A stretch of DNA of 64,000 nt from an uncultured Hyphomicrobiales bacterium (GTDB lineage: Bacteria; Bacteroidota; Ignavibacteria; Kapaibacteriales; Kapaibacteriaceae). Positions within the stretch are counted from its first letter, which is position 1. Every line of letters begins with the position of its first letter. Below are positions 33,689 to 62,087 of this stretch, piece after piece. The stretch covers positions 89,529 through 153,528 of the forward strand of contig CAZUGQ010000003.1 in NCBI GenBank assembly GCA_964620125.1. The letters are read 5' to 3'. Below the pieces are notes generated by a model. It saw only the letters and a list, made by a program, of their open reading frames with translations. It had not been told where the DNA came from and ran no database searches. Made by a program: the position numbers and the translations under genes.

Positions 33689-33833
33689 TCCGTTCACTTT
33701 TCGACTGACCTCGATGAACGCAAACCAATCAACCTCACTGACCTCATTTCTTCACACAACGGGAGTGCTTACCATGAAAACAAACAAGGGTAAAGAACCC
33801 ATCATTTCTATCCACAATACATGGAGAACATCC

Positions 33834-34772: not shown

Positions 34773-34782
34773 CACTCTCCGT

Positions 34783-34838: not shown

Positions 34839-34846
34839 TACATACA

Positions 34847-36472: not shown

Positions 36473-36513
36473 TAAGCACAACTCACGATAGGAAACCTTC
36501 AATTCTCACTGGT

Positions 36514-39744: not shown

Positions 39745-39785
39745 CAACACCAACAGGATTTTTTCGGGAACACAGGAGAACCACG

Positions 39786-43531: not shown

Positions 43532-43610
43532 CATGGCAAACCGAGTATACATGTGTAACCGAACTCCAGCTAGTCCACCGACTCGTTCGAGAGAAGGCAC
43601 AGGAGTTCGG

Positions 43611-44006
43611 ATGCAGTTGCCTTTGGTCAGTGCAGTTGTTGTCACACTTGCATGGCTCGGGTGTGCTCTACCAGGCATGGCTCAGCAGCCGGTGCTCGTA
43701 AACATGGGAGCTACGATCACCGTTACCGGTGGGGGGCTTCTGTATGTGTCTGGTCCAACGGAAATACGCGCAGGCCGCATCGATGCAATGGACCTCTCAC
43801 AGGTGCGATTCAATGGTCCAATGGCGATTTACACAGGTGGTCTGTACCTGTTTAAAGATGCAACGGGACTCATCACAGGTGATTTGGACATCAAACTCGA
43901 TGGCGTATGCTGGCGGTATAAACCTGGAGTGCTAACCGTTGAAGGAACCATTTACAATGACGGAGAACTCAACAACGACGGAGAAATCGTCATCGGCAAA
44001 CCATAA
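43611..44006 (+). CDS. small secreted protein (about 131 aa) embedded in the fibre array
   Basis: ORF 43521 trimmed to MQLPLVSAVVVTLAWLGCALPGMAQQ (signal peptide). Gly-rich beta-type sequence; ends NDGELNNDGEIVIGKP. No recognisable family. Confidence 0.5.
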   Translation: MQLPLVSAVVVTLAWLGCALPGMAQQPVLVNMGATITVTGGGLLYVSGPTEIRAGRIDAMDLSQVRFNGPMAIYTGGLYLFKDATGLITGDLDIKLDGVCWRYKPGVLTVEGTIYNDGELNNDGEIVIGKP

Positions 44007-44053
44007 TCTGCACGTAGGGTTCTAGGTCGTAAATCTCCTGTGGGGTAAACATC

Positions 44054-45340: not shown

Positions 45341-45599
45341 TGATGCCACAATGTTTTCTCAATAAGAGTTGCCGCTCGACTGTTTCCGTGATTCGTAGCA
45401 GGTTCGGCACCTTTGCTGTTGGAGAATCCATCCTAAAGGGTAGCCTACTTGATACAAGTAGCGAAAATTACGGCTGGAAAGCCAATAGGTGTACACTGGA
45501 TCGCGTGCACCCAGCGTACTGCCGGGCAACCACAACGCTGATGATCAACTTCCGAGGGGTTCACGTGGTACGTGATGAGGGAAGTGTGGTGATGGTCAA

Positions 45600-45687
45600 T
45601 ATGGGAATGTGGGAATGTGGGAATATGGGAATATGGGAATATGAGAATATGAGAATGTGGGAATGTGCAAATGTGGGAATGGTAGAA
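45600..45687. repeat. simple-sequence repeat: ~11 tandem copies of an 8-bp unit (TGTGGGAA/TATGGGAA/TATGAGAA) ending at the start codon of the next gene
   Basis: Direct reading of 45601-45695: ATGGGAA TGTGGGAA TGTGGGAA TATGGGAA TATGGGAA TATGAGAA TATGAGAA TGTGGGAA TGTGCAAA TGTGGGAA TGGTAGAA TGCAGACA. Several ATGs in different frames lie inside the repeat. Confidence 0.85.
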
Positions 45688-47807
45688 TGCAGACAATAGG
45701 AACCAATGTTCCGAGATGTCTGGGCAGGCGAGTGCGCCATATCGTATTTGCCTGTTTGTCCATGTCCTTTGCCATGTTCTCGCATGCCGCTGCTTACGCT
45801 CAGCATCTTGAGAACAGAGCCACGGGCACTGTTCGTAACTCCGGCACAATCCGGTTTCGCAGTGATTCGGGGAAGTATAAAAACGATGCTGCCTATACCA
45901 ACATCACTAATAACGTAATCCAGTTTGAAGGGTCAAACAACCAGTTCACGGACCTCTCCGGACAAATCGTGGGCACCACTGCTCTTGGACAGAATCCGGC
46001 ATGGCGTGTTCCTGGAATGGTTCGGTACAGCAATCCAACTAGCGCGATGCAGTACGTGCAAAAACGATACTACACCGACTTGGAGATGGCGGATAGCTCT
46101 TCAAAGTGGATACCAGACAGCGTTTTTGTAGGGGGCAGGTATACGATCTTCCTGTCCGGTCCGAGAACCTATAACGGAACCTTCTTCTATGATGGCTCAC
46201 AGCCACAAGACATCATGCAGGAGAAGGAGTTAAGTGGCACTACCAACCGTTACAACAACATAACGTTGCTTCATAGCCCCAAGAATGTGCGTTCAGGCTA
46301 CGAAGTACGTATGGATGGAATATTCCTCAATGATACGCTGAGCCCCTTGTATGTTGAAGGCGACTTTACATGGGGTTCAAACTCATATGTGAATGCACCG
46401 GTAACGGTCTGGGCTGGTGGCAAACAAACCACAGGATATGGTGTTACAGAGTTACGAGCTGACGTAGAAGTGCAGAATGGACTGTTCCTCGTAGCAGATG
46501 ATGCCGACACCGTGACCATCTTTCCAACGTACGAGTTGAGGCAGCAAGCTGATCCAGCCGCCCTTTTTGCCATGGGGCGCAACACACGCTTGTTAGTGTT
46601 GGGTGACTATCGCAATCTGTATGGTCCGCTCACGAATAGCACGTTTGATACCACGTCGCTCGTTGACTACGCCGGAGTACAGGATCCGCAGATAATGCAG
46701 GCAACTGCAGCTACACACCCGTATGGACATCTGCGCACTTCCAACTCCGTGAAGAATGCCAACGGAGATGTCCATGTGGCTTCTACGTTGAGTGTAAACG
46801 ATACGAATGTTGTTATGGTGCCTCACACGATGAGTCTCACTCTCGGTGCTGCTACCTACACGAATAACGCCGAAGTGATTGGTGCCTTCCGCCGAGTGTT
46901 GGCGGGTGCTACCACCACGAATGCATATACATTCAATAACAGCGAGACAACAGCACTGTTCGTTACCGTACCCAACCAGCTCACACTCGATGTACGGCCG
47001 CAAACACGCCCGAACGACTACGATCCTACTACCGACATCTTCCGAAAGATCACGGTAACACACGACGGTAATTGGAAGGCAACGATCAGAGTGGGGTATA
47101 AAGCCGAAGACATTCCAAACACCTGGGTGCCAAGCACGGCCGAACGCTTGCTCAAGATGTACAACGCCTACCCGCCACCTAATGAATACTCCATAAAGCT
47201 CACACCTACCGTGCCGCCAACGTACATCCGACGTCCACTTGCACAAAGCACGGGCATTGCTTTTATTGAGTTGTTCGGAATCGAAAATCAAGGTCCGGAC
47301 AATCTTCGACTTGATAATGGAAACGATCTGCTGCTACGTGCAAGCCGCGACACACTCAAGGCTGTTGCCTCCGGGCGGTGGAGTAACCCATTTACGTGGG
47401 ATGAAGCCCGTGAACCAGAACCTGAAGACAGAGTTGTGATTGACGGATTCACCGTTCACACTGGATACATACGTGCCAACGACAACTATGCTGTCCGTGA
47501 AGCGTGGCCGGACAGCATGGCTCTGCAGGTAACCATTGGCACATCACCAAACAGTGCCTTGCTGTTTGGTTATGAAAGCCCTGGAGTTTGGGACGCTTTC
47601 TCGCTGGTTCCTAACTCATCCGTAAATCTCATCACGCGCCGTATTGCTCCAGCGTTTGTTCAGGCGGACGTTCTTGACCAAACAGCGGCCGATATAGATG
47701 GTGGTCTGATTGTTTACCGCGGAAGCACGTTCCTGTCGCCGAATCTCATTCTCGCACCTAATGCTACCGTAAACAATGCCGGTACGCTTGTAGTGGGGGT
47801 GCCCTAA
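45687..47807 (+). CDS. large secreted protein of unknown function (paralog of the 47894 gene)
   Basis: MQTIGTNVPRCLGRRVRHIVFACLSMSFAMFSHAAAYAQ signal peptide. The upstream in-frame ATG at 45657 lies inside the SSR. N-terminal region GTVRNSGTIRFRSDSG...VIQFEGSNNQF aligns with GVIKNTGMIKIRGDAS...HIHFEGTSRKM of the next gene. Confidence 0.65.
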   Translation: MQTIGTNVPRCLGRRVRHIVFACLSMSFAMFSHAAAYAQHLENRATGTVRNSGTIRFRSDSGKYKNDAAYTNITNNVIQFEGSNNQFTDLSGQIVGTTALGQNPAWRVPGMVRYSNPTSAMQYVQKRYYTDLEMADSSSKWIPDSVFVGGRYTIFLSGPRTYNGTFFYDGSQPQDIMQEKELSGTTNRYNNITLLHSPKNVRSGYEVRMDGIFLNDTLSPLYVEGDFTWGSNSYVNAPVTVWAGGKQTTGYGVTELRADVEVQNGLFLVADDADTVTIFPTYELRQQADPAALFAMGRNTRLLVLGDYRNLYGPLTNSTFDTTSLVDYAGVQDPQIMQATAATHPYGHLRTSNSVKNANGDVHVASTLSVNDTNVVMVPHTMSLTLGAATYTNNAEVIGAFRRVLAGATTTNAYTFNNSETTALFVTVPNQLTLDVRPQTRPNDYDPTTDIFRKITVTHDGNWKATIRVGYKAEDIPNTWVPSTAERLLKMYNAYPPPNEYSIKLTPTVPPTYIRRPLAQSTGIAFIELFGIENQGPDNLRLDNGNDLLLRASRDTLKAVASGRWSNPFTWDEAREPEPEDRVVIDGFTVHTGYIRANDNYAVREAWPDSMALQVTIGTSPNSALLFGYESPGVWDAFSLVPNSSVNLITRRIAPAFVQADVLDQTAADIDGGLIVYRGSTFLSPNLILAPNATVNNAGTLVVGVP

Positions 47808-47893
47808 TGGTGTGGGTAGATCACATCTTAGCTCGATGTGCATCGTTCTTGGCACGTATTCCTTTACCGTTGCCACCAGGTAGCACATGGGCA

Positions 47894-49996
47894 ATGCCTA
47901 ACCTTGTCGGGTTGGCAGTTATGCTCCTCGCACTCTGCTTACCATGCTCCAGCCTCTTATCGCAGCAGCCTTCCATTCTGTTCTCGGAAGGAGTGATAAA
48001 GAATACAGGTATGATCAAGATACGCGGCGACGCAAGCTTAACACAGGATAGCATCGGTGGTGTTGTGCGCTACGAGCGCAATCATGCTGCAGATACTCAG
48101 CTTGTAGCACAGCTCACCTATGCACACATTCACTTCGAAGGTACAAGCCGAAAGATGATCCTTGACCCAACAAGGCCGCTCATCGCCGATAGCACCTTCT
48201 GGTCAGTTGCTAGAGATGTTCAACTAACTCTCAGCCCAGACACATACATCCAGGCAAATAGAACTGTACGCCACGAAGGTGTGATCAACCTCAACCTCCG
48301 CTATGGACGGTTTGTTCTTCGTGGTACGGAAAATCAAGATGTAAGTGGACAAGGTTTTATCCCGATTCTCGAGCTTGATAACCCAACGGGAGCAACAATC
48401 ACCCGAGGGGGGGGGCTGCGGGTGTACGAGCGCCTGGACTTGCAGCGAGGCCAGCTTTCCAACTCACCTGCCGACAACATTTCCGTGTTGCAGGGGGCTT
48501 GGGTTTGGCGTGATGACAGTGGCTCAATTGCCGTGGAGCCACAATGGAACACACGCCTCAACCTTCGGTATTATGGTGATAGTGCGATGCTCGGGGGGCC
48601 AGAAATGGTTCGGAACACCAACGCAATCGGTCACCTGGTGAATGACGACCTAGCCGGTCTCACCCTACCCTACACGATAACCGTTAATGACTCGCTGATT
48701 CTGCGTGGGCACATTCATACCGAGCAGGATGATGTGAACCGTCATGAATTGGTGTACAGTGCAACAATGGACCCTAACTATGTGGGGGTATGGCCAGAAG
48801 TGATCGGCACGCTTACCCGAAGTACACTGCTGGATGGTCGTACAATGAGAATGAACAACAGCTTCACGACCATCTACTTCGCGAATTCTCAAGATCGCGG
48901 CAGTGTGGTCCAATATGCAGTGCGAAGCAAACCTAAAACCACACCACTGCCACTAACGGACATTACCTATAAGGTAGACAGATTCCTGCAGCTCCAAGCA
49001 CGAGATTTTGTGGGCGACACCGTTGCTGATAGCACGTACACGCTCACGCTTGGGTATGCCTGGCGCAACCGAGAGATAGCTGGAGTGGAGCAACCGACTG
49101 TTGTGGAAACCACTGCTCCGTTGCAGGGCCTTGAAGACCAGTTGGTTCTAATGCGGTATAATGGCCTGTCATATAACCCATACGGCTTTTCGATTACGCC
49201 AACAACACCTCTACCGGATCCGCTTGAGGCGTGGCGGTACAGTACAGCAAGTTTGGTGCGTGCCGGCGGTGATTTTGCAATTGGGCTTTCAACAGGACCA
49301 ATCTGGGTGTTAAACACTCGAGTATTCCTCGAAGGTCCGATGCGCACGTATGGTGAGAACTTCACGCCAGAAATGTCGACCGATCTTGCGGCCCTCGGTC
49401 TTGTGCCCAATGTTGCCCCAGACGTATACCCGTACTCGCTCGACCCGGACAGGCTTACAGACACTGCCATCGCCATCGGAGACAGTATCGTTGACTGGGT
49501 GACCGTGGAATTTCGTACCTCGCCAACCGCCAGTGGTCCAGCAGACCTAATTGAAACCTTACTGCTCACAAAGGATGGTCGGGTGTTGGATCCGCAAACG
49601 TTACGACCCAGAATTATCGAAGGTATTCCGTCAGGCTTCTACAACATTGCTGTTCGACACCGAAATCACTTGGCTGTCATCACTGAGCAAAAGGTGTTGG
49701 TAGACAGATCCAACCTCGGGTATGTGGTGGACCTTACAACCGGCACTGGCATGTTCGGTGGAGCCGCTTCGCAAAAGCTGATTGGAACGGCAAACGGACG
49801 GCGGTGGTTTGGCTTGATCGCTGGAGAGGTAGAGGGGGGGGACGAAATACTCCGCTCCGACTACAACCTTGTTTGGGATGCCAGAAATCTGGAAGGCTAC
49901 CTGATCACAGACACCGACTTGAACGGCATCGTGACTACACGGGATGTGAACGTAACATGGAACAATCGGGAGCGCAGCAGTGTGGCCCCGAGATAA
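47894..49996 (+). CDS. large secreted protein of unknown function (paralog of the 45687 gene)
   Basis: ORF 47807 trimmed to MPNLVGLAVMLLALCLPCSSLLSQQ. Contains G9 and G8 homopolymer tracts (~48404, ~49833) encoding Gly runs. Confidence 0.6.
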   Translation: MPNLVGLAVMLLALCLPCSSLLSQQPSILFSEGVIKNTGMIKIRGDASLTQDSIGGVVRYERNHAADTQLVAQLTYAHIHFEGTSRKMILDPTRPLIADSTFWSVARDVQLTLSPDTYIQANRTVRHEGVINLNLRYGRFVLRGTENQDVSGQGFIPILELDNPTGATITRGGGLRVYERLDLQRGQLSNSPADNISVLQGAWVWRDDSGSIAVEPQWNTRLNLRYYGDSAMLGGPEMVRNTNAIGHLVNDDLAGLTLPYTITVNDSLILRGHIHTEQDDVNRHELVYSATMDPNYVGVWPEVIGTLTRSTLLDGRTMRMNNSFTTIYFANSQDRGSVVQYAVRSKPKTTPLPLTDITYKVDRFLQLQARDFVGDTVADSTYTLTLGYAWRNREIAGVEQPTVVETTAPLQGLEDQLVLMRYNGLSYNPYGFSITPTTPLPDPLEAWRYSTASLVRAGGDFAIGLSTGPIWVLNTRVFLEGPMRTYGENFTPEMSTDLAALGLVPNVAPDVYPYSLDPDRLTDTAIAIGDSIVDWVTVEFRTSPTASGPADLIETLLLTKDGRVLDPQTLRPRIIEGIPSGFYNIAVRHRNHLAVITEQKVLVDRSNLGYVVDLTTGTGMFGGAASQKLIGTANGRRWFGLIAGEVEGGDEILRSDYNLVWDARNLEGYLITDTDLNGIVTTRDVNVTWNNRERSSVAPR

Positions 49997-51305
49997 TTAC
50001 CGGCCTTATAGAACACAGCGTGTTTTAACAGCTCTGGGTTGCTTGGTGTTCCTTGCCGGACTTGTTCGTGCTCAGGTAGACGGCCGTATCGTCGTGCGGC
50101 CGATGTTGGATCCAGCATACGGGCGATTTACCTTCGACCTTACCATCAGGCGAGAGAGTTCGCGGTGGACGTATCTGGCTAATACGACCATACGGCTTGA
50201 AAGCGTTGACCTTGATCCAACCGGCGGATTCAATCCTGCAGTTCATCAGATCACATTTGTTCCTGATAGCAGCGATCTAAACCTTGTTCCATACAACGCG
50301 CCATCAATGGATGGGTACTATGTTGACTATGGCATGGTGAATGGTGACCTTGTGGTGCACGTGCTAGGTCCGGACAGTGTGCAGAATGCTCACGATATGA
50401 CCAGTACGCTCGATTCCGCTCGAGTTGGCCGATTCATCATCGAGAGCAATGACGGCTCGTATGTGCCTGAACAGCTGCGCATGGCTCAGCCCCTTGACTA
50501 CTATCAGGCAACGGCGTTCAAGATTGACCATGACAGCGTAACGGGTACGGGCTTCGACCGGAACGTCTGGTTTAACAAGCACGACAACCCACCACTCGTC
50601 ATGGCATTTGATGAGCTGCCACCCCCACCGGACACCTGTGGAGCCATTTTTAACTTCTATGGATCCTACGTTGGTGATCTGAGAGTAATGCTTGGCTTCG
50701 ACGTTACGGACGAACACTGCTATGAAGGTTTCATCATCGAACGTGCCTTAGTTGATCGGACACAACCTGACGTTCTGGACTTTCAGGGCAGACCGCAGTT
50801 AACCTATCTCAATGAACCCCGCTTGTTAAGCTGTTTGTGCCTCGAGCCACAAGTGCATGACAGTTTGTTCGACGAAGTAGAATTCAGACGTGAGATTTAT
50901 GCCTATCGCCTGATTGGCAAACGGTTGCCATTTTACGGTGACTCAAATGAAGTGATTGACACGATTTTTCTTCGAATTCCCAATGCGATCATCTCCAACG
51001 CTCGCATACTTGAGAATCCGTTCAAGGACGTAACCACCATTCGGTTCAATGCCGATGATCGGTTACGACTCGATGCAAAAGTGTTTGATCTTGGTGGACG
51101 CCTGATCGGATACCTGGAGAATGAGAAGGGGCAACCAGCGGAAAACATGGAGTATCCGCTTGGAATAGGATATGAGTTGAAATTCAATGCTCCCGACATA
51201 GCATCGCAAGGGCTGTACAACATCCTACTGGTAGGTACACCAGTTGATGATGAAAGTGTGGCGGAGGGTAGTCGAGTGATCATCAAGGCGCAGCTTCTAC
51301 GATGA
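49980..51305 (+). CDS. secreted protein with type-A T9SS C-terminal sorting domain
   Basis: Signal peptide ...VLTALGCLVFLAGLVRAQ. C-terminal ~90 aa ILENPFKDVTTIRFNADDRLRLDAKVFDLGGRLIGYLEN...GLYNILLVG...RVIIKAQLLR fits the T9SS CTD pattern. Confidence 0.7.
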   Translation: MWPRDNYRPYRTQRVLTALGCLVFLAGLVRAQVDGRIVVRPMLDPAYGRFTFDLTIRRESSRWTYLANTTIRLESVDLDPTGGFNPAVHQITFVPDSSDLNLVPYNAPSMDGYYVDYGMVNGDLVVHVLGPDSVQNAHDMTSTLDSARVGRFIIESNDGSYVPEQLRMAQPLDYYQATAFKIDHDSVTGTGFDRNVWFNKHDNPPLVMAFDELPPPPDTCGAIFNFYGSYVGDLRVMLGFDVTDEHCYEGFIIERALVDRTQPDVLDFQGRPQLTYLNEPRLLSCLCLEPQVHDSLFDEVEFRREIYAYRLIGKRLPFYGDSNEVIDTIFLRIPNAIISNARILENPFKDVTTIRFNADDRLRLDAKVFDLGGRLIGYLENEKGQPAENMEYPLGIGYELKFNAPDIASQGLYNILLVGTPVDDESVAEGSRVIIKAQLLR

Positions 51306-52108
51306 GACCTCTGTTTACCATCGGACTGATCATCATGTGCAGTGCCTTCACAGCAAGTGGACAGATAAGTCAGACTGGGACGGATGAAGGCCTGCAGTAT
51401 CCTCTTGATACGCTCGTGCGAAAGCATGAATGGTGGCTTGGCATCGGAGGCAGTGCGTACTACGCGATGAATTATGGTACCCTGACTGTTGACATCCTGG
51501 GAGGTACCGCACCAAATAGCCCGTCCTTCACCGTTCAGCCATCCGGTGGGTATGGCTATGGGGCCGGATTCGGGCCAGTGGTGGAGTTTCGGCCGATTTT
51601 TTCCCAGTTGGGTTTCCTGTTAACAACGAATGCTGAGTGGCGCTGGGCAACTGCACAAACTGAGGTGCCAATAGCATCTGATATCTTTGCGTACAACGCG
51701 GTATTTGAAGCTCAGTCGCAAGTGTTGTATCTAGCAACCTCGTTCTCAGTGAAAGCCCAGATTGGAGTAACCGGATTGTTTGCCATGGCGGGTATTACTG
51801 CAGATGTTCCACTATCGACGCAGGAAACCTATGTATGGCAACACGAGATTTGGGAAGGCGAGCCACCAAGCAACCTTCCCGGAGCTCCGCAAACAAGCAT
51901 TAAATGGCAAACCCAGGTAGAGTACAGTCCGCGGTTGGGATTGCAAGTCGGAATTGGCCACGACTTTTTGGCTGGTATGTTTGGATATCGAGAACAGTTG
52001 GTAACGCCTTATCTGGTTATTCAGGGAGCAACACCGGCGGTGTTCGAGCCAAGTGCATGGAATAGCATCAGTGCCCGTCTAGGCTTTTTGTGGCGAGCGG
52101 GCTTGTAG
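51302..52108 (+). CDS. signal-peptide protein, putative outer-membrane beta-barrel partner of the upstream T9SS cargo (possibly PorP/SprF-like)
   Basis: MRPLFTIGLIIMCSAFTASGQ signal. Alternating amphipathic beta-strand-like segments with aromatic girdle residues; ends ...ARLGFLWRAGL. Start overlaps the cargo-gene stop (ATGA). Confidence 0.45.
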   Translation: MRPLFTIGLIIMCSAFTASGQISQTGTDEGLQYPLDTLVRKHEWWLGIGGSAYYAMNYGTLTVDILGGTAPNSPSFTVQPSGGYGYGAGFGPVVEFRPIFSQLGFLLTTNAEWRWATAQTEVPIASDIFAYNAVFEAQSQVLYLATSFSVKAQIGVTGLFAMAGITADVPLSTQETYVWQHEIWEGEPPSNLPGAPQTSIKWQTQVEYSPRLGLQVGIGHDFLAGMFGYREQLVTPYLVIQGATPAVFEPSAWNSISARLGFLWRAGL

Positions 52109-52267: not shown

Positions 52268-54310
52268 TTATGCCGATGGCATTTTCAAGGCGAAGATTGC
52301 GCCAGGTCCATCATGATCCACATACTCAATGGTTGCATTCATGCGTTGCGCCATGCGTTTTACTAGGTACAGTCCAAGCCCAATACTGTCCTCACCCCCT
52401 GTTGGGCGAGCACTCAAGCGAGCATACTTGGTGAAGAGTTTTGCGCGCTCAGCAGCAGGTACTCCCGGACCCGCATCTTGCACATGAACGGCAACTTCCT
52501 TGTTCTCCGTGAACACCGTGATTGTGATGGTGCTGTCGCGTGGACTATACTTAATGGCATTCGATATCAGATTATCCAAAACAGCATCAACGATTGAGTG
52601 GTCGGCGTAAGCCCACGCCTCGCCGGTACTTTTTACAAGGATGTTAATCTTCTTTGAGTAGGCTCTAGCTTCATAGCGCTCAACGGCACGATGCGCCATG
52701 TGCACGATATCCAGTTTGTCCAGACTTAAACCATTGCTTCTCCTATCCGTGCGGCTTACTTCAAGAAAGGCATGCACCGTGGCGATCATTCGCGTTACAG
52801 CTGATAGGAGTTCTTTGCAAACATCCAACACATCGTCGCGTCCAAGAACATCATAGTGTGCGATGATGCTTTGCAGCATGGTGCGCATGTCGGCCAGTGG
52901 ATTGCGTAGGTCGTGAGCAGCGATTGCCATGAACTCATCTTTCTCAGTTGCCAATTCCGAAAGCTCCTTGTTCATGCGAGTGAGCTTTTCGTTGGCCGCA
53001 ACCAGTTCCACATTTCTCAGGCGTTGTATTTCATCTTCCTTTTCTTTTCTGTCCTTTTCACGTGCCGCCTGTAACCGACGCATGCGTGTTTCCATGCTGT
53101 CTGCATGCTGTTGTGTGTAAGCCGATGCCCATGCAGACATCAGCTCATATGCTTCACGTGTAGCGCCAACGCCTGCTTGCGCTCGGGCGAGTTCAGAAAA
53201 CGCACGTAACGTGTCAACATGTGCTTGCACGGCAGCCAGGTAATCGCGCGCCTTCGTAAGTACTGAAATGGCCTCCTTGTATTTCCCTTGATCGTTGTAC
53301 ATTCTACCGAGTACCAGAAGCCAATGCCCACAGGCATACCTATCCCCTTCCATTTCACTGATTGATAGGGCTTCATTCAACAGTGGCTCTGCCTTTTCGT
53401 ACTCCTGTTGACTCACATACATCTGCCCGAGGTTTCCCAGAACCTTACTGCGAATGCTTTCAAATGGATAGCGCTCAAGGTAGGTTTTTGCATCGAGCAA
53501 GGAACTGATTTGAGCCGTTTTGTCGCCCAGTGATTCAAAGATCGAGGCAGCATTGCTCTTTACTATAGCAATGACCATTTGTACTGCCGATTCTATTGCA
53601 GCTGCAGTGCTTTCCTCGAAGTATCGAAGTGCCTCGTCTCTGTTTCCACGCCGAGCATGCAGTTGAGCCAGGTGGGATGCAGATTGTGCCAATCCACTCA
53701 TGTTTCGATAATCACGTTCGATATTGTAGCACTTACTGAAATATTCCAGTGCACGCGCATCATCGTCACGGCGCATACAGAACTCAGCGTAATTATAATA
53801 CACCGTAGCAAGGCCAAGGGGATCGCCAATGGCCTCGCGTAACTCAAGTGCTGCCTGATAGCTCTGGTCGGCCCTGTCCGTTTCGCCGAGTGAGTCCAAT
53901 ATGCCTGCTCGCAGCGTCTGCAAACGAGCAGCAACCAATTTGTTGTTTACCTCACCTACCTTCTCATACGGCTCAAGTACCGTGAGAGCCTCCCGCAGGC
54001 GGCGTTGCCGCATAAGAATTGCAGCGTGTGTATATGCAATCCACGCTTGAGCTGAATAATTGTCTCCTGCGCAGGCTCGGGCTTTATTAAGCCATTCGTA
54101 GCTACTGTCGAATTCGGCGTAGTTGTGAAAGTGCAGAGCAAGAACGCAGTAGAACTCGGTTTTCAGTTCAACATCACTACATGACTCGGCAGCCGATGCG
54201 GCCAGTTCACGAGCGTTTCGGATTCGCTCCGATGATGGGTTGGTGATCAGGTCACGGCGAACGGTGGCCAAGACGGCACTATAGTCCGAGGGTTGATTGA
54301 GTTCTATCAT
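52268..54310 (-). CDS. cytoplasmic TPR-repeat sensor histidine kinase (TPR x ~8, coiled coil, HisKA, HATPase_c)
   Basis: C-terminal H-box IAAHDLRNPL, N-box ISNAIKYSP, G1 DAGPGV, G2 GLGLYLV. The N-terminal two-thirds are TPR-like (YELMSAWASAY, ALRYFEEST...). Start placed at MIELNQ within ORF 52268..54364. Confidence 0.75.
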   Translation of the reverse strand: MIELNQPSDYSAVLATVRRDLITNPSSERIRNARELAASAAESCSDVELKTEFYCVLALHFHNYAEFDSSYEWLNKARACAGDNYSAQAWIAYTHAAILMRQRRLREALTVLEPYEKVGEVNNKLVAARLQTLRAGILDSLGETDRADQSYQAALELREAIGDPLGLATVYYNYAEFCMRRDDDARALEYFSKCYNIERDYRNMSGLAQSASHLAQLHARRGNRDEALRYFEESTAAAIESAVQMVIAIVKSNAASIFESLGDKTAQISSLLDAKTYLERYPFESIRSKVLGNLGQMYVSQQEYEKAEPLLNEALSISEMEGDRYACGHWLLVLGRMYNDQGKYKEAISVLTKARDYLAAVQAHVDTLRAFSELARAQAGVGATREAYELMSAWASAYTQQHADSMETRMRRLQAAREKDRKEKEDEIQRLRNVELVAANEKLTRMNKELSELATEKDEFMAIAAHDLRNPLADMRTMLQSIIAHYDVLGRDDVLDVCKELLSAVTRMIATVHAFLEVSRTDRRSNGLSLDKLDIVHMAHRAVERYEARAYSKKINILVKSTGEAWAYADHSIVDAVLDNLISNAIKYSPRDSTITITVFTENKEVAVHVQDAGPGVPAAERAKLFTKYARLSARPTGGEDSIGLGLYLVKRMAQRMNATIEYVDHDGPGAIFALKMPSA

Positions 54311-54446
54311 CGAAAAACACGTTGCTAAGTTGCAAGAGCAATTTACGGAGGTATACACCCCCAACTCATGCCGGCATGGGCAAGGAAAGCTTACTATATT
54401 GCGCCGCTTTTCGAGGTACCTTCTTCAGCATGGAAAACACTCGCGT

Positions 54447-55979
54447 ATGGGCGTTGTAGCACTGTTGTGTACGTTGTTCGCACCACTGGTGGGTGCGGCA
54501 GCGGTGGTATTAACGGAGAAGGATCAGGAGCGTGCCATCCGCATTACTGCACTGGTCAGTGCTATCGGTACGTTCATCGCTTCGCTGTTTCTCCTACCCG
54601 AGTTTGATCTTGGATCATCAGCCATGCAGTTCATGGTAAACATGCCATGGATCACGCAACTGGATGCCGGTTTTCGAATTGGGATCGATGGCACCAGTTT
54701 GCTCCTTGTGCTTCTTACCACCCTCATCATGCCGATTGCCCTGCTGGCAAGCTGGCAAAGCATCACCCATCGCGTTAAGGAATATCATGCCTTGATGCTA
54801 CTTCTGCAGTTCGGGATGACCGGAGTGTTCATTGCTCTCGACACATTTCTATTCTATGTGTTCTGGGAGCTGATCCTGATACCGATGGTATTCATCATTG
54901 GTATCTGGGGCGGGAAAGACAAGGTGTACGCTGCCATCAAGTTTTTCCTGTACACCCTCGTAGGTTCTCTGCTGATGCTTGTGGCCATTTTGTGGCTAGG
55001 ATTTGCTGCCGAAGCACAGGGTTTGGGTTTTACAGCCGATCTCATGAAGCTGCGAATGGTTGGGCCTGCAATCCCAATGTCTATCCAGCTTTGGTTGTTT
55101 CTGGCCTTTGCTTTGAGCTTTTGTATCAAGGTACCGCTCTTCCCATTTCACACATGGCTGCCTGATGCACACGTTCAGGCACCAACGGCGGGATCCGTAG
55201 TGCTTGCCTCTGTACTGCTCAAAATGGGAACGTACGGCTTGATCCGTTTCAATCTTGAGTTGTTTCCTCAGGCATCGGCTGAACTTGCAGGGCCTATCTG
55301 CGTCCTTGCCGTGATTGGAATTATCTATGGCGCACTGGTTGCCATGGTGCAAACCGACGTGAAGAAGCTCGTTGCCTACTCCTCGGTGAGCCACATGGGT
55401 TTTGTTGTCCTTGGCATCTTCTCACTCACTGTTGAAGGTGTGCAAGGGGCTGTGATTCAGATGGTAAACCACGGACTCAGTACAGGCGCACTGTTCCTTT
55501 GTGTTGGAGTGTTGTATGAAAGGCGCCATACTCGCGAGATAGCCGACTACGGTGGCGTTACCAACGTGATGCCTCGGTTTGCCGTACTGTTTGCGATTGC
55601 AATGTTCGCATCAGTTGGTTTACCCGGCCTGAATGGATTCGTTGGCGAGTACCTCACGTTGCTTGGAGCCTTCCAGAGCCCCTTCCTGAACAACTGGACC
55701 TATGCCATCGTGAGCGCGAGCGGCGTGATTTTCGCTGCTGTGTATCTGCTCTGGATGTTCCAACGAGTGATGTTCGGCAAGAATGAGAATCCCGCAAACC
55801 ATCATCTAAGAGATCTGAACAAGCTTGAGTATTGGCAGCTGGTGCCTCTCACGATTATGATGATCTGGATTGGCGTGGCACCGCGAACGTTTATGGATTT
55901 GTCCGAACAAAGCATACGTAAGGTGGTCTCCACAGTGGAGCACATCAGGTTTGGAAGCACTGCACACAACATCCGCTGA
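54447..55979 (+). CDS. nuoM: NADH-quinone oxidoreductase subunit M (complex I antiporter-like subunit)
   Basis: ORF 54297 trimmed to MGVVALLCTLFAPLV. 14-TM protein with FYVFWELILIPM, HTWLPDAH and LKKLVAYSSVSHMGFV motifs. Confidence 0.85.
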   Translation: MGVVALLCTLFAPLVGAAAVVLTEKDQERAIRITALVSAIGTFIASLFLLPEFDLGSSAMQFMVNMPWITQLDAGFRIGIDGTSLLLVLLTTLIMPIALLASWQSITHRVKEYHALMLLLQFGMTGVFIALDTFLFYVFWELILIPMVFIIGIWGGKDKVYAAIKFFLYTLVGSLLMLVAILWLGFAAEAQGLGFTADLMKLRMVGPAIPMSIQLWLFLAFALSFCIKVPLFPFHTWLPDAHVQAPTAGSVVLASVLLKMGTYGLIRFNLELFPQASAELAGPICVLAVIGIIYGALVAMVQTDVKKLVAYSSVSHMGFVVLGIFSLTVEGVQGAVIQMVNHGLSTGALFLCVGVLYERRHTREIADYGGVTNVMPRFAVLFAIAMFASVGLPGLNGFVGEYLTLLGAFQSPFLNNWTYAIVSASGVIFAAVYLLWMFQRVMFGKNENPANHHLRDLNKLEYWQLVPLTIMMIWIGVAPRTFMDLSEQSIRKVVSTVEHIRFGSTAHNIR

Positions 55980-55980
55980 T

Positions 55981-57417
55981 ATGCAGATAGACTTTTTTGG
56001 CGCCCTGCCGCTCGTTGTGATCTGGCTTGCCTTGGGAGCCATTGGTATCGTTATCCAAGCTTTTGTGAAGGGTGATTCGAAGCTTGTATACGGATACTAT
56101 CTGGCAACACTTACCGCTACAGGCGTTCTGGCAATCGCCACCATGTGGCATCGCGGAGCAACCTTTCACAACATGATTACGCTTGGTGGTACGGCGGCAT
56201 ATTTCGACCTGCTGTTCTGTACTGCCGGCATCCTTGCCATGCTTGCCGCACGAGACTATCTCGAACGGTGGCACAGCGGGTATGATGAGTTCTACACCAT
56301 GCTTGTAAGCAGCGTGGCTGGTATGATGCTCATGGCACATGCACGCAACCTACTTGTGCTGTTTGTTGGCGTGGAACTAATGTCCATCAGCTTCTACATC
56401 ATGGCGGGATTCCTACGCCACCGATCGCGAAGCGTGGAGAGCGCGATGAAATACTTTCTGCTGGGCGCGTTTGCCAGCGGTTTCCTGGCGTATGGAATGG
56501 CCCTGTTGTATGGAGCAACGGGATCATTCGACTATGATCGTATCCTAGGTGTTGTTGCGTCGGGCACGAGCGCATACCCAGCACTCCTTGCCATTGGGGC
56601 AGTGCTTTTGGCGGTCGGCCTGTCCTTTAAAATTGCTGCCTTCCCATTTCATCAGTGGGCACCAGACGTATATGAAGGCGCACCTACAGTGGTTACGTCA
56701 TTCATGAGCACGGCCGGCAAAGCAGCTGCGTTTGCGGCAATCGTGCCTGTGTTTACCGTACTCATGCCCATGGTGCAGACGGCACCTCTTACGCCAGGAC
56801 TGCAAACAATGTTGGCTGTGATCTCGGCCATCACCATGCTTGTTGGTAACATCACGGCCGTTGCACAGACAAACATCAAGCGCATGCTGGCCTACTCGTC
56901 CGTGGCACATGCAGGATATCTGCTCATGGGTGTTGTTGCAGGCACTGCGCATGGCCAGGAGGCAGTCATCTTCTACCTCACGGCATACACCTTCATGCAG
57001 CTTGGTGCCTTTGTCGTAGTCGGTTTGCTAGAGAAGGAAGAAGCGGATTCGCTGGAACTCTCCTGGTATGCTGGACTGTCGAAACGCCACCCGGCCTTGG
57101 CGGCGGTTATGGCTGTGTTCATGTTTTCGCTTGCGGGCATACCTCCCTTTGCCGGATTCTTCGGAAAGTATCTTCTGTTTCTATCAGCCGTGGAAAGCGG
57201 CTTCACATGGCTAACGATCGTTGCTGTTGTTTCGTCGGTGATCTCTGTATGGTTCTACCTGGGCCTCATCGTGAAAATGTACTTCCAGGAGAGTCAGGTG
57301 GAAGTCTCTCCAGCACCGGCTGGCCTGGCTGGTGTGGCTATCGCCGTATGCACCATTGCCAGCATTGGCTTGGGTATACTACCAATGCTTGTTGTGAACC
57401 TGGTCTCCACATGGTAG
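55981..57417 (+). CDS. nuoN: NADH-quinone oxidoreductase subunit N
   Basis: MQIDFFGALPLVVIWL..., FHQWAPDVYEGAPT, KRMLAYSSVAHAGY. ATG 2 nt after the nuoM stop. Confidence 0.85.
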   Translation: MQIDFFGALPLVVIWLALGAIGIVIQAFVKGDSKLVYGYYLATLTATGVLAIATMWHRGATFHNMITLGGTAAYFDLLFCTAGILAMLAARDYLERWHSGYDEFYTMLVSSVAGMMLMAHARNLLVLFVGVELMSISFYIMAGFLRHRSRSVESAMKYFLLGAFASGFLAYGMALLYGATGSFDYDRILGVVASGTSAYPALLAIGAVLLAVGLSFKIAAFPFHQWAPDVYEGAPTVVTSFMSTAGKAAAFAAIVPVFTVLMPMVQTAPLTPGLQTMLAVISAITMLVGNITAVAQTNIKRMLAYSSVAHAGYLLMGVVAGTAHGQEAVIFYLTAYTFMQLGAFVVVGLLEKEEADSLELSWYAGLSKRHPALAAVMAVFMFSLAGIPPFAGFFGKYLLFLSAVESGFTWLTIVAVVSSVISVWFYLGLIVKMYFQESQVEVSPAPAGLAGVAIAVCTIASIGLGILPMLVVNLVSTW

Positions 57418-59678
57418 TTCGGCAGGGGGCTTTCCCACTCCTGCTTATAATCCTGTCAACGTTATGTGCCGGGCTACTCCATGCGCAGCCTAACGTGGAA
57501 GTATTCTGGTTGCCAACCAATAGGGCAGACACGGTGATGGATTTTGGGGTAACGCTAGAAGGGTTCCCTGTTCGATTGCCGTTTCATGTGATCAACCACG
57601 ATGTTGTGCCTGTTGGTATCCTGCCCACGAACAGTCAGGCAGAGCCTTACTATGCAATCGTGAACACTCCGGCATTGCCACCACCACACCAGATGAAGGA
57701 TGAGTTCGAGCGCGTAGGTAGTCTGCCATATATCGTACAACCAGGTGATACTGGAAGCTTCGAGGTTGAATACCAGGCGTGGACAGGAAGTCCGGGACAT
57801 CCTCCCGATAGCGTGGCAACAGCACTCCTGGAGATTAGAGTGGTGAAGATGACGGATTCGTTGGGTCCTGCCATCTTTCGGCGGTTTCTGCTACGCGCCC
57901 TTAAAACACGATATGCACTTGCCACCACCACACCTCTCATTCGATTCGACAGCGTGTACGTCAACCCTCAGCCAAAGCCACCACAAGAACCATACGCTGT
58001 TACAAATGCTAGTTCACTCGCCATACCGGTGGAACGACAGGTTCTAGATTTCAAAACCAGTGTGTCGGGTGATGCAGAAATCTTGATAGATACGCTGCGA
58101 GACGCCGTCTTCGCACCACGAACATCGTTGCTGTGGAACGTTGAATACAAACCCCACAACATGGGTAAAGACTCTGCACACTTCCATGTTGTGTACCGTC
58201 CGAACCCTGGCAGTGAGACCGATTCCGTTACACTCCGCGTTTCCGGTACTGGTGTGTTGCAGCAGATCGCTGTAGACAGCGCCAATGCCGTTCCGCCATC
58301 GGTTGTGGTACGGGGCGACACGATAGATTTTGGTGATGTTGATGCTGATGGCAGCGGCGGCAAGCTTGCCAGAATCATTGTCCGAAATACAGGAAACATC
58401 AACGTTCGATATACCAGTGAACGCGAAGTTGGGACAGTGGGAGATACTCTGGCCTATCAGATCGAGCGTTCTTTGCAATCTGGTGGTTCAGATCTGCTAA
58501 CGAATGCGTGGGACACCCTGTTGGTGCGATTTGCTCCAGTAAATGGCGGTCCTCACATCATCCAGTATGTGATCGAAACCGATCTGATGTCGAGGCAGGT
58601 GAAAGGTGTTCCCGACGGTGCACACCAGCGAGTATTCACCTTCCGTGGCTTTGCACGGAAACCGCAGATGGCTGTGCTGCCAACATCCGTTGACTTTGGT
58701 CCTGTTGTTCTGTTGCCTGCATGTTCCTCTGCCGTGGAGCGTACCGTTGTGGTTCGTAACGTTGGAAACATCCTTCTGCGAATTGACAGTGTGCGTGTTC
58801 ATCCTCCAACGTCGGCCATAACCGTGAACCCGCCCGAGCCTATTCCGGCGATTGAGGTTGATGGCTCGCAAACACTCATCGTGCGGTATCAACCGGCACA
58901 GATCGAACAGCTTTCGGCGTTTCTTGTTCTGTACACCAACGCGTTTGGTCCACCAGTTCACATACCACTCGCAGGCTCGGCTATTGGTGCGGACACAATC
59001 ACGGTATCCGTTCCCTCACAGGCACTTCGGCCTGGTTCCACGTTAGCACTGCCGATACATGTGGATGCTGACAGAGTCATGTTAGCCCAGACGTCGAAAC
59101 TCACGTTGAGCTTTGATCCATCGCAGTTACGGTATCGAGGATTGATCACCGGAGGCACGAGCACGGAAGGTGCAACCGTTCTGAACAGCGCCGAGAATCC
59201 TCGTGGCGTGCTCAAGCTGGAGTTCGAAGCCAACGGATCGTTTGCGGAACGCGATACCTTCGTCATCGTGGTGTTTGATACCTACCTCGGCACCAATGCT
59301 GCCACGGAGTTGGCGCTTAACAGTTCTACCACGCAGTTCGGAAATGCGGGCTGCGCCTCCATTTTACGCGTTACTACGGTGAATGGAACATTCGCAGCAG
59401 ATAGTGTTTGCGGACTCCCATTCAAGACGGCAACCAACGGCACACTAAACATGAGCATTGCTCCACTCCCTGCAGGTAACGAGGTGCATGTTACCGTAGA
59501 GAGTTCAACGGGGCAGGCGGTGCAGCTTGCACTCTACGATACCTATGGAACGTTACTTTCTACGTTCGAAGGTAGACCGCACACTCGAATTGACCTGCAG
59601 GCCCTCCCTGTGGGTTTGTATGTACTCGTGGCTCGTAGTGGTGGGCTATGGCGTGAGCGGGTGATTGTGCATCAATGA
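57411..59678 (+). CDS. secreted protein with repeated ASH/choice-of-anchor-D-type Ig-like domains and type-A T9SS C-terminal domain
   Basis: ATG at 57411 overlaps the nuoN stop (ATGGTAG). Signal peptide MVVRQGAFPLLLIILSTLCAGLLHA. Repeats of the DFG.V.....R.V.VRN.GN..L.I type. C-terminus ...GLYVLVARSGGLWRERVIVHQ. Confidence 0.7.
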   Translation: MVVRQGAFPLLLIILSTLCAGLLHAQPNVEVFWLPTNRADTVMDFGVTLEGFPVRLPFHVINHDVVPVGILPTNSQAEPYYAIVNTPALPPPHQMKDEFERVGSLPYIVQPGDTGSFEVEYQAWTGSPGHPPDSVATALLEIRVVKMTDSLGPAIFRRFLLRALKTRYALATTTPLIRFDSVYVNPQPKPPQEPYAVTNASSLAIPVERQVLDFKTSVSGDAEILIDTLRDAVFAPRTSLLWNVEYKPHNMGKDSAHFHVVYRPNPGSETDSVTLRVSGTGVLQQIAVDSANAVPPSVVVRGDTIDFGDVDADGSGGKLARIIVRNTGNINVRYTSEREVGTVGDTLAYQIERSLQSGGSDLLTNAWDTLLVRFAPVNGGPHIIQYVIETDLMSRQVKGVPDGAHQRVFTFRGFARKPQMAVLPTSVDFGPVVLLPACSSAVERTVVVRNVGNILLRIDSVRVHPPTSAITVNPPEPIPAIEVDGSQTLIVRYQPAQIEQLSAFLVLYTNAFGPPVHIPLAGSAIGADTITVSVPSQALRPGSTLALPIHVDADRVMLAQTSKLTLSFDPSQLRYRGLITGGTSTEGATVLNSAENPRGVLKLEFEANGSFAERDTFVIVVFDTYLGTNAATELALNSSTTQFGNAGCASILRVTTVNGTFAADSVCGLPFKTATNGTLNMSIAPLPAGNEVHVTVESSTGQAVQLALYDTYGTLLSTFEGRPHTRIDLQALPVGLYVLVARSGGLWRERVIVHQ

Positions 59679-60439
59679 AAACGCTCGCCATTCTGTGCTT
59701 GCTTCTGGCTATTGCCGCTGATGGTAAGGGGCAGGGGTATGCGTGGGAGTTTAGCCCTCGATTTCCGATGTTCATGCCAACTCGATTTGTTGGCATCGAA
59801 GTAAGTGGCAGCTATGCATTCCATTCGGCGAGTGTGCTGTATGTAGAAGACTTGCTTCCGTGCTGCACATTCAAGGATGGAACAGGCGTTCCACTCCGCA
59901 TTGTAGTTACTGGTGAGCAATGGTTGAATGCCAACCTGGCTGTTGGTGCTGGATTGGGTGTTCAACTTCAGTCTGCAGTTCTCACAGCTCCAGGCGACAC
60001 CTTGCCCGTGATCGACGGCAATACTGTTGAATTGATGATCACCGAGTGGGAACTGGCAACCAGCGTAACCTACGCAAGCATCGAAGCAAACTCCCGTTTG
60101 CGATTGTTCACTTCGGCTCTTTCAGTCGGTGTTGGACTCCGGGGCCACATTCGCATCACATCGCAAGCTCAGGTTATCGAAAGAATTATTCAACCCGAAG
60201 ACGCTTTCTTCCAGGATTCACAGAGCAATGAGCGTGTTTCGGCCACTGCCGACTTTGACCAGAGTGCTCTGTTTGTGCTTGAGCCCGCACTCTCGCTGCA
60301 GTATGATGTTCCATTGAGTACAGGGCTTGTGTTATCACCATCAATACTGGTATCGAAGCCCCTTACAAGCCTTAGCTCACAACAGGATTGGAGTTACCTG
60401 GCCTTGGGTTTTGGCGTAAGAATTTCCAGGGGACTCTGA
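59675..60439 (+). CDS. signal-peptide protein, putative outer-membrane beta-barrel partner (architecture parallel to the 51302 gene)
   Basis: MKTLAILCLLLAIAADGKGQ signal; 254 aa; amphipathic beta segments; ends ...YLALGFGVRISRGL. Overlaps the stop of the upstream T9SS cargo gene (ATGA). Confidence 0.45.
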   Translation: MKTLAILCLLLAIAADGKGQGYAWEFSPRFPMFMPTRFVGIEVSGSYAFHSASVLYVEDLLPCCTFKDGTGVPLRIVVTGEQWLNANLAVGAGLGVQLQSAVLTAPGDTLPVIDGNTVELMITEWELATSVTYASIEANSRLRLFTSALSVGVGLRGHIRITSQAQVIERIIQPEDAFFQDSQSNERVSATADFDQSALFVLEPALSLQYDVPLSTGLVLSPSILVSKPLTSLSSQQDWSYLALGFGVRISRGL

Positions 60440-60576: not shown

Positions 60577-61401
60577 ATGCGTTCAGGATTCCTGATGCTC
60601 TCTGTGCTTGCATTTGCCGCTGTCGTGGGATATGCGCAGACTACTACCACGCCAGCACAAACCCCAGCGACCCAGAGCAAGCTGGAGATTATTGGCGGTG
60701 ACACGTATGATTGGGGTAAAACCAAGCCGCCGACAGAGGGCCACCTGGAAGCAACCATCAAAATGAAAAATGCTGGTACGGCCGGCATGAAGTTGGTGGA
60801 AATCAAGCCAGGATGTGGATGCACTAAGACCGACCCGGATAAAATGGAAGTCCAGCCCGGTGATGTGAGCACGATGGGCGTGAAGCTGAACGTAAGCCCA
60901 TCCCAGAACGGACCAATCACGAAGAGCATCACCATCCGGTGGATGGACCTAGCCGCGTATGAGGCACGGGAAGCAGCACGCAAGTCCGGTCAAGCCGTCC
61001 CTGCCAACCTTGATACAACCGAAAAGGTTGCCTACCTGTTTTTGAAAGCCGACATTCAGCGTGCCATCGCGCTCTCGCCTAGTATCTACTTCTCTTTCCA
61101 AAACCTGGAGATTGGGCAAAAAAGCAACGCTACCGTTACCATCTCGAACAACTCCGATCAGGAGGTAACCTTTAGCGACTTTAAGGCAGACAATGGCCTG
61201 GTGTTAAGCAAGAGTGGTAAGGTTACGCTGAAGCCCGGTGAGTCCTTCGATCTTACTGCAACACTTGTACCTTCCATGAAGGGCCAATATTCTGGGCTGG
61301 CACAGTGCAAGACAAGCCATCCCGAACATCCCACGGTAGAGATTAGAGCGTACGGCTTCGTTAAGGAGAACGAAAGTCCAGTGTACCAGCAACCCAAGTA
61401 A
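60577..61401 (+). CDS. DUF1573 domain lipoprotein/secreted protein (two DUF1573 Ig-like repeats)
   Basis: ORF 60505 trimmed to MRSGFLMLSVLAFAAVVGYAQ. The first repeat has the diagnostic IKNAGTAGMKLVEIKPGCGCT. The second is FQNLEIGQKSNATVTISNNSDQEVTF. Confidence 0.7.
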   Translation: MRSGFLMLSVLAFAAVVGYAQTTTTPAQTPATQSKLEIIGGDTYDWGKTKPPTEGHLEATIKMKNAGTAGMKLVEIKPGCGCTKTDPDKMEVQPGDVSTMGVKLNVSPSQNGPITKSITIRWMDLAAYEAREAARKSGQAVPANLDTTEKVAYLFLKADIQRAIALSPSIYFSFQNLEIGQKSNATVTISNNSDQEVTFSDFKADNGLVLSKSGKVTLKPGESFDLTATLVPSMKGQYSGLAQCKTSHPEHPTVEIRAYGFVKENESPVYQQPK

Positions 61402-61472: not shown

Positions 61473-62087
61473 CTAGGCGCTCATTTCGATAAGGGAACTG
61501 CACCACGTTCGTTCCTCACTATCGTTGGTAGCAAGAATCACGACACCGCCATGTTGGCGGTGTCGTGTTATTTCTGCCCGAACCAAACTCTTGCCAGCCT
61601 CATCAAGGGTGGTAGATGGCTCGTCAAGCAAGAGCAAACGAGGCCTCCGATGAGTGGCCAGGGCAAGCATCACTCGTTGGCGCAAACCACTGCTTAGAGA
61701 TCGAACAACATCGCGAGATCGGTTTGCAATGCCAAGTCGATCCAGAGTTTGCAGTGCCTCGGTGGGTAACTGGTTCTCTCCGTGCAAGTGCGCCTGAAGG
61801 GCTAGGAGTTCCAAGGGGGTGAACTCATCGTAAAGACTGTACCATGGGGCCACCAGGCCGGTGGTGGACAGTGGTTCCGCAACAATCACCCTATCAACCG
61901 TTAAATGAACAGACCCAGCATCTGGCTGTATCAACCTGCCTAGTACTTTTAAAAGCGTACTCTTCCCGGAACCGTTCGGCCCCACGAGGCCTAGGCATTC
62001 ACCGCCGTGTACGGTTACGTTAAGGTTGCTGAAAATCGTTCGATTACCATACGACTTAGCAACCCCCTTGGCCACAAGCTCCGTCAT
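61473..62087 (-). CDS. ABC transporter ATP-binding protein (small, CcmA-like)
   Basis: Walker [10 protein letters not shown], signature LSSGLRQRV, Walker B LLLLDEPSTTLD. Start placed at MTELVAK; overlaps the upstream gene's stop. Confidence 0.8.
   Translation of the reverse strand: MTELVAKGVAKSYGNRTIFSNLNVTVHGGECLGLVGPNGSGKSTLLKVLGRLIQPDAGSVHLTVDRVIVAEPLSTTGLVAPWYSLYDEFTPLELLALQAHLHGENQLPTEALQTLDRLGIANRSRDVVRSLSSGLRQRVMLALATHRRPRLLLLDEPSTTLDEAGKSLVRAEITRHRQHGGVVILATNDSEERTWCSSLIEMSA

Follow-up and report, generated by a model that had tools for sequence, protein, structure and literature searches.

Small outer-membrane barrels encoded in overlap with exported proteins: candidate dedicated partners for type IX secretion system cargo

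Introduction

Can a protein that leaves the cell through the T9SS (type IX secretion system) on an ordinary type-A C-terminal domain (CTD) have an outer-membrane partner of its own? The question is raised by a 64,000-nucleotide (nt) stretch of bacterial DNA (assembly GCA_964620125.1, contig CAZUGQ010000003.1, positions 89,529-153,528, forward strand; hereafter the window), in which two genes for exported proteins, cargo 1 and cargo 2, are each followed by an overlapping gene for a small exported protein, partner 1 and partner 2 (pairs 1 and 2; Table 1). According to the literature, PorV recognises all type-A CTDs, and private shuttles of the PorP/SprF family are a feature of type-B CTDs (PMC12618676). 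In SprB/SprF, a neighbouring PorP/SprF barrel binds a cargo with a type-B CTD and is needed for both its secretion and its anchoring (PMC9143113, PMC12618676); SprF binds SprB, and PorP binds PG1035 (PMC9143113). The original prediction for this locus had proposed the same logic, a cargo with a dedicated outer-membrane partner, for two cargos of type A.

The answer that we reach is that both small proteins are predicted outer-membrane barrels of a single family, that each is kept beside particular genes for exported proteins, and that they may serve these proteins as docking partners. All four open reading frames (ORFs) are present as predicted, and at both junctions the stop and start codons overlap by 4 nt as ATGA (...cgATGAga... 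in pair 1, ...caATGAaa... in pair 2).

Fold and kinship of the two small proteins

At the N-terminus of each small protein stands a hydrophobic signal-peptide helix, and after it comes a Gln that shows little or no variation within the family, which fits the cleavage by signal peptidase I before Gln described for Bacteroidetes (PMC5837995). AlphaFold2 models run with family alignments are all-beta for both, with a predicted local distance difference test (pLDDT) score of 77.7 and a predicted template modelling (pTM) score of 0.69 for partner 1, and 93.9 and 0.84 for partner 2. The models contain about 8-10 long antiparallel strands, a number that is approximate since it was read from secondary structure, and the strands of partner 2 are 22-27 residues long. 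Foldseek searches of the PDB returned exclusively small-class outer-membrane barrels for both proteins (TM-score 0.3-0.5, identity ~10%), including OmpA, NspA, OmpX, OmpW, OmpT/Pla, OpcA and Legionella Dot/Icm-associated porins; the neighbours of partner 1 are OmpA/porin barrels and those of partner 2 are of OmpT/Pla/OmpA type. Signal peptide, all-beta model and barrel structural neighbours, the marks of an outer-membrane barrel, are thus found together in both proteins. The fold class of the models is clear, in agreement with the beta-barrel-like character first ascribed to these proteins, with no specific solved relative; a sequence search of the PDB with both family profiles found nothing useful.

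An exhaustive profile search places partner 2 in a family of 409 representative clusters (50% identity) at E<=1e-3. Its alignment of 72 sequences is marked by an N-terminal QG[FY]xW..S.R.P segment (QGFDWQYS.R.P), by Cys63(-Cys64) just past the first hairpin (Cys63 in 71 of the 72 members, Cys64 in 53) and by a C-terminal R-x-G-L. The family of partner 1 is small, with 23 homologues of at least 45% identity that all belong to one clade; these were aligned as the partner-1 family, which contains no Cys. Partner 1 itself keeps the fold and lacks the N-terminal motifs of the partner-2 family. The R-x-G-L end is conserved in both families, so that what had been described as an aromatic-rich C-terminus is better described by this motif, with Leu as the last residue. 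No Pfam or NCBIfam model matched either window barrel. Among the relatives, PF13568 (OMP_b-brl_2), which we take to cover PorT-like proteins, weakly matches 14 of the 72 sequences of the partner-2 family (best E 2.4e-8) and one of the 23 of the partner-1 family (4.8e-5), and the NCBIfam model of the TDE1717 barrel family weakly matches 15 of the 72 (best E 2.9e-4) and CglE two. These matches are consistent with a tie to OMP_b-brl_2 at the level of the superfamily only.

Pairwise comparison of the two partners by BLASTP detected no similarity, and hhalign with a shallow profile of five sequences gave only 22%. The full family profiles align end to end over 236 columns with 97.2% probability and an E value of 4e-11, and with 95.9% once the signal peptides are removed, compared with 0.2-0.5% for controls in which the profile of either family was reversed, composition and strand periodicity being kept. 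Furthermore, when the hidden Markov model (HMM) of the partner-2 family was run against all six-frame ORFs of the window, partner 1 was the sole other match (E 9.6e-4). Because of this profile homology, the match within the window and the common R-x-G-L end, partners 1 and 2, whose kinship had been proposed from the start, are divergent paralogues within one previously unnamed barrel family.

Pair 2 as a conserved module

Behind its signal peptide, cargo 2 has several immunoglobulin (Ig) domains of the HYDIN/ASH ("choice-of-anchor D") kind, one cohesin-like domain and, at the C-terminus, a T9SS CTD of type A. The corresponding Pfam matches are HYDIN_VesB_CFA65-like_Ig (E 1.9e-11), Cohesin (E 9e-4) and Por_Secre_tail (E 6.5e-4), and a cargo 2 profile finds HYDIN, the cohesin 2vn5 and the T9SS CTDs 8glk/8glj in the PDB. 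The CTD, at residues 684-752, reaches 25.1 bits with TIGR04183, above the cutoff of 23, and 20.4 with the Pfam CTD model (PF18962), under the cutoff of 27; seven of eight homologues match both TIGR04183 (best E 5.5e-9) and choice_anch_D, and the type-B model (TIGR04131) matches neither cargo 2 nor any of the eight. Exactly three Cys, at residues ~437, 647 and 666, are invariant in the cargo-2 family (30 of 30 sequences).

The genomic contexts of pair 2 were collected by exact-sequence look-ups of distant barrels, a genome scan and a search of metagenomes for the motif QGFDWQ[YF]. They comprise 47 distinct barrels, and for 38 of these the sequence extends 600 nt or more upstream. A full-length cargo-2 homologue of ~760 amino acids (aa) lies directly 5' of the barrel gene in 35 of these 38 loci (HMM E values from 1e-44 to 1e-290); the overlap is exactly 4 nt in 21 of the 35, and the remainder lie mostly within +/-17 nt. 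The barrels concerned are only about 25-45% identical and the flanking genes vary from lineage to lineage, which makes the pair itself the conserved unit. The carriers are metagenome-assembled genomes labelled Candidatus Kapabacteria, Ignavibacteria or Bacteroidota, in which the proteins, where they are named at all, are called "hypothetical".

A third gene often accompanies the pair. It encodes a DUF1573/ASH protein (Pfam: DUF1573, E 4.9e-17; HYDIN-like Ig, E 2.7e-15) of a family of ~250-300 aa that is Sec-exported and free of a CTD, and a homologue was found downstream or divergently upstream in 18 of the 23 loci with wide flanks, the other five being without it. Pair 2 is a deeply conserved and widespread module, and our literature search found no description of it.

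In the window, two genes of Proton_antipo_M (NuoM/NuoN-like) type stand in front of cargo 2 (54297-57417, +), with no other complex I genes, and there is a 7-nt overlap between the second and the beginning of cargo 2. The clade of the window (L003, L004, L015-L017) keeps this arrangement, which is not found in distant carriers of the module.

Pair 1 as the tail of a five-gene operon

Pair 1 turned out not to be the simple two-gene case that it had been taken for. In five related genomes (L001, L003, L015-L017), partner 1 is always the last member of a conserved set of genes for proteins of ~127, 706, 700, 435 and 270 aa, all with signal peptides. Cargo 1 is the fourth of these, with homologues 57-70% identical in the same position, and the products of genes 2 and 3 have homologues that are 66-70% and 62-70% identical across the five genomes. 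In Pfam, NCBIfam and the PDB, no relative of the products of 706 and 700 aa or of the body of cargo 1 was detected, and the bodies of cargo 1 and cargo 2 show no homology to each other. Cargo 1 has four invariant Cys.

Both cargos had been assigned type-A CTDs, an assignment that holds for cargo 2 and has modest support for cargo 1, whose match to Por_Secre_tail is weak (Pfam E 0.14, residues 346-383) and is seen in only one of six homologues. When its C-terminal ~105 aa were compared by hhalign with a 30-sequence profile of type-A CTDs, the result was 73.9% with a score of 28.4, against scores of at most 14.4 in 20 column shuffles, so that the end of cargo 1 is best described as CTD-like and divergent.

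The partner-2 barrels are tied to one family of ~760-aa proteins and partner 1 to a five-gene operon, and coupling to a specific upstream exported protein, so strongly conserved (35 of 38 loci for pair 2, five genomes for pair 1), is the genomic signature expected of a dedicated partner. This much of the proposed partner logic stands. It does not extend to type-A cargo in general: the type-A CTD gene at 17305-19863 has no barrel gene after it.

The operon is always preceded by genes for fibre-like beta-roll proteins and followed by a convergent gene for a histidine kinase with tetratricopeptide repeats (TPR). In the window, the fibre genes (30029-45340, +) encode seven large exported paralogues of 1219, 352, 541, 1091, 629, 628 and 428 aa. 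Their beta-roll repeats are of the form GGxxNxAxG and match LbR_Ice_bind, and they have an N-terminal segment in common. They also share a C-terminal beta-sandwich of ~90 aa that ends in W.E..RS.N and matches Phage_depo_C above its cutoff (E 5e-8 and 9e-6). These genes lie 5' of the five-gene operon in all the related genomes, and the C-terminal domain that they have in common may act as a signal for sorting or assembly that is linked to the operon.

Several features of the operon proteins themselves deserve mention. The tail N-x-G-x-[IL]-x-[IV]-G-x-P-COOH is found at the C-terminus of both the ~130-aa and the 716-aa protein, and the 716-aa and 729-aa proteins share an N-x-G-T-I-x-x-R-x-D motif right after the signal peptide; by analogy, these shared end motifs are reminiscent of the strand-exchange ends of fibre subunits. 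An EF-hand/dockerin-like loop in the 729-aa protein, DTDLNGIVTTRD, was considered as a possible dockerin and rejected, as Pfam gave no match. Upstream of the gene for the 716-aa protein, positions 45598-45681 hold 10.5 tandem copies of the 8-nt unit AATGTGGG (88% matches), an array that stops ~5 nt before the probable ATG at 45687; the related genomes have no spacer where it sits. Because the repeat unit is not a multiple of three and lies before the operon genes, it suggests that operon 1 may be subject to phase variation by slipped-strand mispairing.

Comparison with characterised barrel systems

The arrangement resembles SprB/SprF in that a cargo gene stands immediately 5' of the gene for its own outer-membrane barrel. 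The barrels described here are, however, of ~26 kDa rather than ~35 kDa, and the CTD of cargo 2 is of type A and not of type B. The proposed check against the PorP/SprF models (PF11751 and TIGR03519) gave no match at E<=1 for the window barrels and none among their 72 and 23 relatives. The NCBIfam models of T9SS components (PorQ, PorV) likewise gave no match at E<=1 to the same set, the presence there of a PorT model being unconfirmed. By HMM, the barrels thus do not belong to the PorP/SprF, PorV or PorQ families, and the proposed analogy holds for the logic and fails for the family.

In the attachment complex of P. gingivalis, PorV and PorQ are the barrels that anchor PorU and PorZ, two proteins with a CTD (PMC12365241). 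This known system is comparable in that a specific barrel, and not anionic lipopolysaccharide (A-LPS), keeps proteins with type-A-like CTDs at the surface. It differs in that our barrels have no HMM similarity to PorV or PorQ, in that the cargo here is built of Ig and cohesin domains rather than a beta-propeller or sortase, and in that the genes overlap, with no hint of a role in core secretion. PorT is a beta-barrel of 26.7 kDa whose function is unknown (PMC5445135). The window barrels are of the same size class as PorT/SprT, and some of their relatives match PF13568 weakly, yet they themselves stay under all Pfam and NCBIfam thresholds and form a pair of paralogues, each linked to an upstream gene of its own.

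A covalent link between barrel and partner has a precedent in PorK-PorG, where a conserved Cys joins a small outer-membrane barrel to its partner (PMC12365241). Cys63, in 71 of 72 barrels, and the odd number of invariant Cys in the cargo-2 family (three) recall this arrangement; against the likeness, the Cys persists in solitary barrels, a Cys-Cys pair is present in most members and partner 1 is Cys-free. An intermolecular disulfide from barrel Cys63 to cargo 2's odd Cys is possible, but the check on solitary barrels gave it no support, and it is purely a lead drawn from the PorK-PorG analogy.

Proposed docking partners and alternative readings

The reading that we favour, in which our belief and our doubt are about evenly balanced, is that the barrels are dedicated outer-membrane docking partners of particular T9SS-exported proteins and hold these at the cell surface, a mechanism that we infer from gene conservation only. 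Each barrel would be exported by Sec and, through translational coupling, made in a fixed ratio with one exported protein. By means of its type-A CTD, cargo 2 would pass the outer membrane via the T9SS, and a non-covalent bond with the cognate barrel would then keep it at the cell surface, probably with the help of the DUF1573/ASH protein, a two-Ig protein of the periplasm. Pair 1 would be derived and particular to its lineage, its paralogous barrel anchoring one or more products of a five-gene operon for a surface structure. The binding of barrel to cargo, the surface location of the cargo, the part of the T9SS and the role of the third protein are thereby all put forward on sequence grounds.

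Two considerations shape this reading. Since coupling is conserved across barrels that are only ~25% identical, barrel and upstream protein probably act together in a fixed ratio. Barrels of 8-10 strands of the OmpA/OmpX/OmpT type have no pore for a folded protein of 45-80 kDa; because they are too small as pores for folded cargo, docking is more plausible than translocation, and since cargo 2 brings its own export signal in the type-A CTD, a small barrel of this kind would fit best as a cognate outer-membrane anchor.

A number of points weigh against docking. Three of the 38 barrels are solitary, with no adjoining cargo gene; the CTD of cargo 1 is divergent and the case for it modest; and the remaining proteins of operon 1 are CTD-free. 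Reportedly, PorV generally handles type-A CTDs, after which the protein is attached to A-LPS or released (PMC12618676, PMC9143113), so that a protein anchor is not obviously needed. Moreover, core T9SS genes of this genome are suggested solely by the several CTD proteins encoded in the window.

The barrel could instead be a dedicated shuttle that replaces PorV for its own cargo, binds the CTD at the translocon and is needed for secretion itself. The gene logic is that of SprF-SprB and of the Fjoh type-B/PorP-like pairs (PMC12618676), the tight conservation of the pairing is in keeping with it, and the divergent CTD of cargo 1 may not fit PorV. We nevertheless consider a shuttle unlikely: the barrels have no sequence relationship to PorP/SprF or PorV, the CTD of cargo 2 is an ordinary type-A domain that passes TIGR04183 and belongs to a class reported to use PorV (PMC12618676), and shuttles of the PorV/PorP class are of 35-43 kDa (PMC5445135), compared with ~26 kDa here.

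Alternatively, the barrel may be the working part, as a small channel, a receptor or something enzyme-like, and the Ig-rich protein its surface accessory or cap, which the T9SS merely delivers; barrel and surface partner would then form a complex of the kind known from Bacteroidota, comparable with SusC/SusD. Strong conservation within the family, above all in the QGFDWQYS.R.P segment and the nearly universal Cys63, the existence of solitary barrels and the length of the model strands, which suggests a protruding barrel like OmpT, all speak for such a role. That no catalytic or transport family was matched in our searches, that a barrel of 8-10 strands has little or no pore, and that partner 1 keeps the fold with none of the motifs or the Cys make it improbable in our view.

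We see still less prospect for a polymer platform, in which the DUF1573/ASH protein would be a chaperone of PapD type and the barrel a platform for assembling a fibre from Ig-rich subunits. DUF1573 and ASH domains are, we assume, generally classed with Ig folds of the PapD-like/major sperm protein (MSP) kind, the third gene is frequent (18 of 23 loci) and the operon of pair 1 sits behind an array of fibre-like proteins. A chaperone-usher pilus was rejected as a candidate, however, as the barrels have 254-268 aa where an usher has ~800 and no usher (PF00577) or pilin match was found; each module also has a single cargo gene, export is already explained by the T9SS CTD, and five of the 23 loci have no third gene. 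Mere coincidence, in which ordinary structural outer-membrane proteins happen to follow genes for CTD proteins, might have accommodated the lack of a named family and the empty BLASTP comparison, and is scarcely credible given a pairing kept in 35 of 38 loci at ~25-45% barrel identity, in varied surroundings and mostly with a 4-nt overlap; chance adjacency is effectively refuted.

The module might represent a third class of cargo-dedicated T9SS partner, in which each member of a new family of ~250-aa barrels, with at least 409 clusters that all carry the annotation "hypothetical", specifically binds and anchors, or shuttles, one multi-Ig/cohesin protein with a type-A CTD, assisted by a PapD-like two-Ig helper. 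We advance this wider proposal tentatively and think it somewhat more likely to fail than to hold. The logic of a cargo with a cognate outer-membrane barrel is already known; new here are the barrel family, the type-A CTD and the frequent third Ig protein. Were the proposal true, it would break the rule that PorV and A-LPS serve all cargos with type-A CTDs, and would add a new route by which T9SS cargo is targeted and anchored. It would, further, supply a function for a large "hypothetical" outer-membrane family in poorly studied lineages of the Fibrobacteres-Chlorobi-Bacteroidetes (FCB) group, hint by homology at the role of small PorT-like barrels and offer a tractable system of two or three proteins for studying the contact between a PorT-size barrel and a CTD protein.

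Gene layout and neighbouring genes

Table 1. Positions in the window of the two pairs and the features associated with them.
Feature	Positions	Strand	Description
Cargo 1	49980..51305	+	ORF of 441 aa; exported; divergent CTD-like end; body fold unassigned
Partner 1	51302..52108	+	ORF of 268 aa; predicted outer-membrane beta-barrel; last operon gene
Cargo 2	57411..59678	+	ORF of 755 aa counted from GTG start; signal peptide, HYDIN/ASH Ig, cohesin-like, type-A CTD
Partner 2	59675..60439	+	ORF of 254 aa; predicted outer-membrane beta-barrel
DUF1573/ASH gene, frequent third member of pair-2 module	60577..61401	+	~275 aa; Sec-exported; two Ig domains
Operon-1 gene 1	43611..44006	+	~130 aa; exported; C-terminus NNDGEIxIGKP; same position in L001, L003, L015-L017
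Operon-1 gene 2	45657..47807	+	~706-716 aa; exported; domainless by search; probable true start ATG 45687
Operon-1 gene 3	47807..49996	+	~700-729 aa; exported; domainless by search; 17-nt overlap with cargo 1
Hairpin	61539..61567	.	Bidirectional; strong; 13-bp stem, 9 GC pairs; 3' of DUF1573 gene

The hairpin listed in Table 1 likely marks the end of a nuoMN-cargo 2-barrel-DUF1573 transcription unit; the scan found no comparable hairpin between 57411 and 61401. Over the region as a whole, the scan for promoters and terminators performed at chance level, with terminator counts no higher than expected from shuffled sequence.

The TPR-rich histidine kinase (52268-54364, -) has HisKA and HATPase_c domains and no obvious receiver. 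Its gene converges on pair 1 and diverges from the unit of nuoMN and pair 2, and it lies between both pairs in all five related genomes, with three tandem copies in L001; the kinase is a candidate regulator of either unit.

On the far side of pair 2, the gene at 62084-63709 (-) encodes a putative HExxH metalloprotease of the MXAN_6640 family (NCBIfam 140.5 bits, cutoff 140) with a weak type-A CTD-like end (E 0.11), and it adjoins the module also in L004, L007 and L016. Two further genes for surface proteins lie in the first part of the window: that at 14060-17221 (+) encodes a T9SS-type surface protein with DUF7948 and Ig domains and is not followed by a barrel gene, and the type-A CTD gene at 17305-19863 (+) encodes SBBP beta-propeller repeats, an Ig domain and a Por_Secre_tail of 31.6 bits. 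The next gene is sufB, part of a complete suf operon for Fe-S assembly at 20082-25752.

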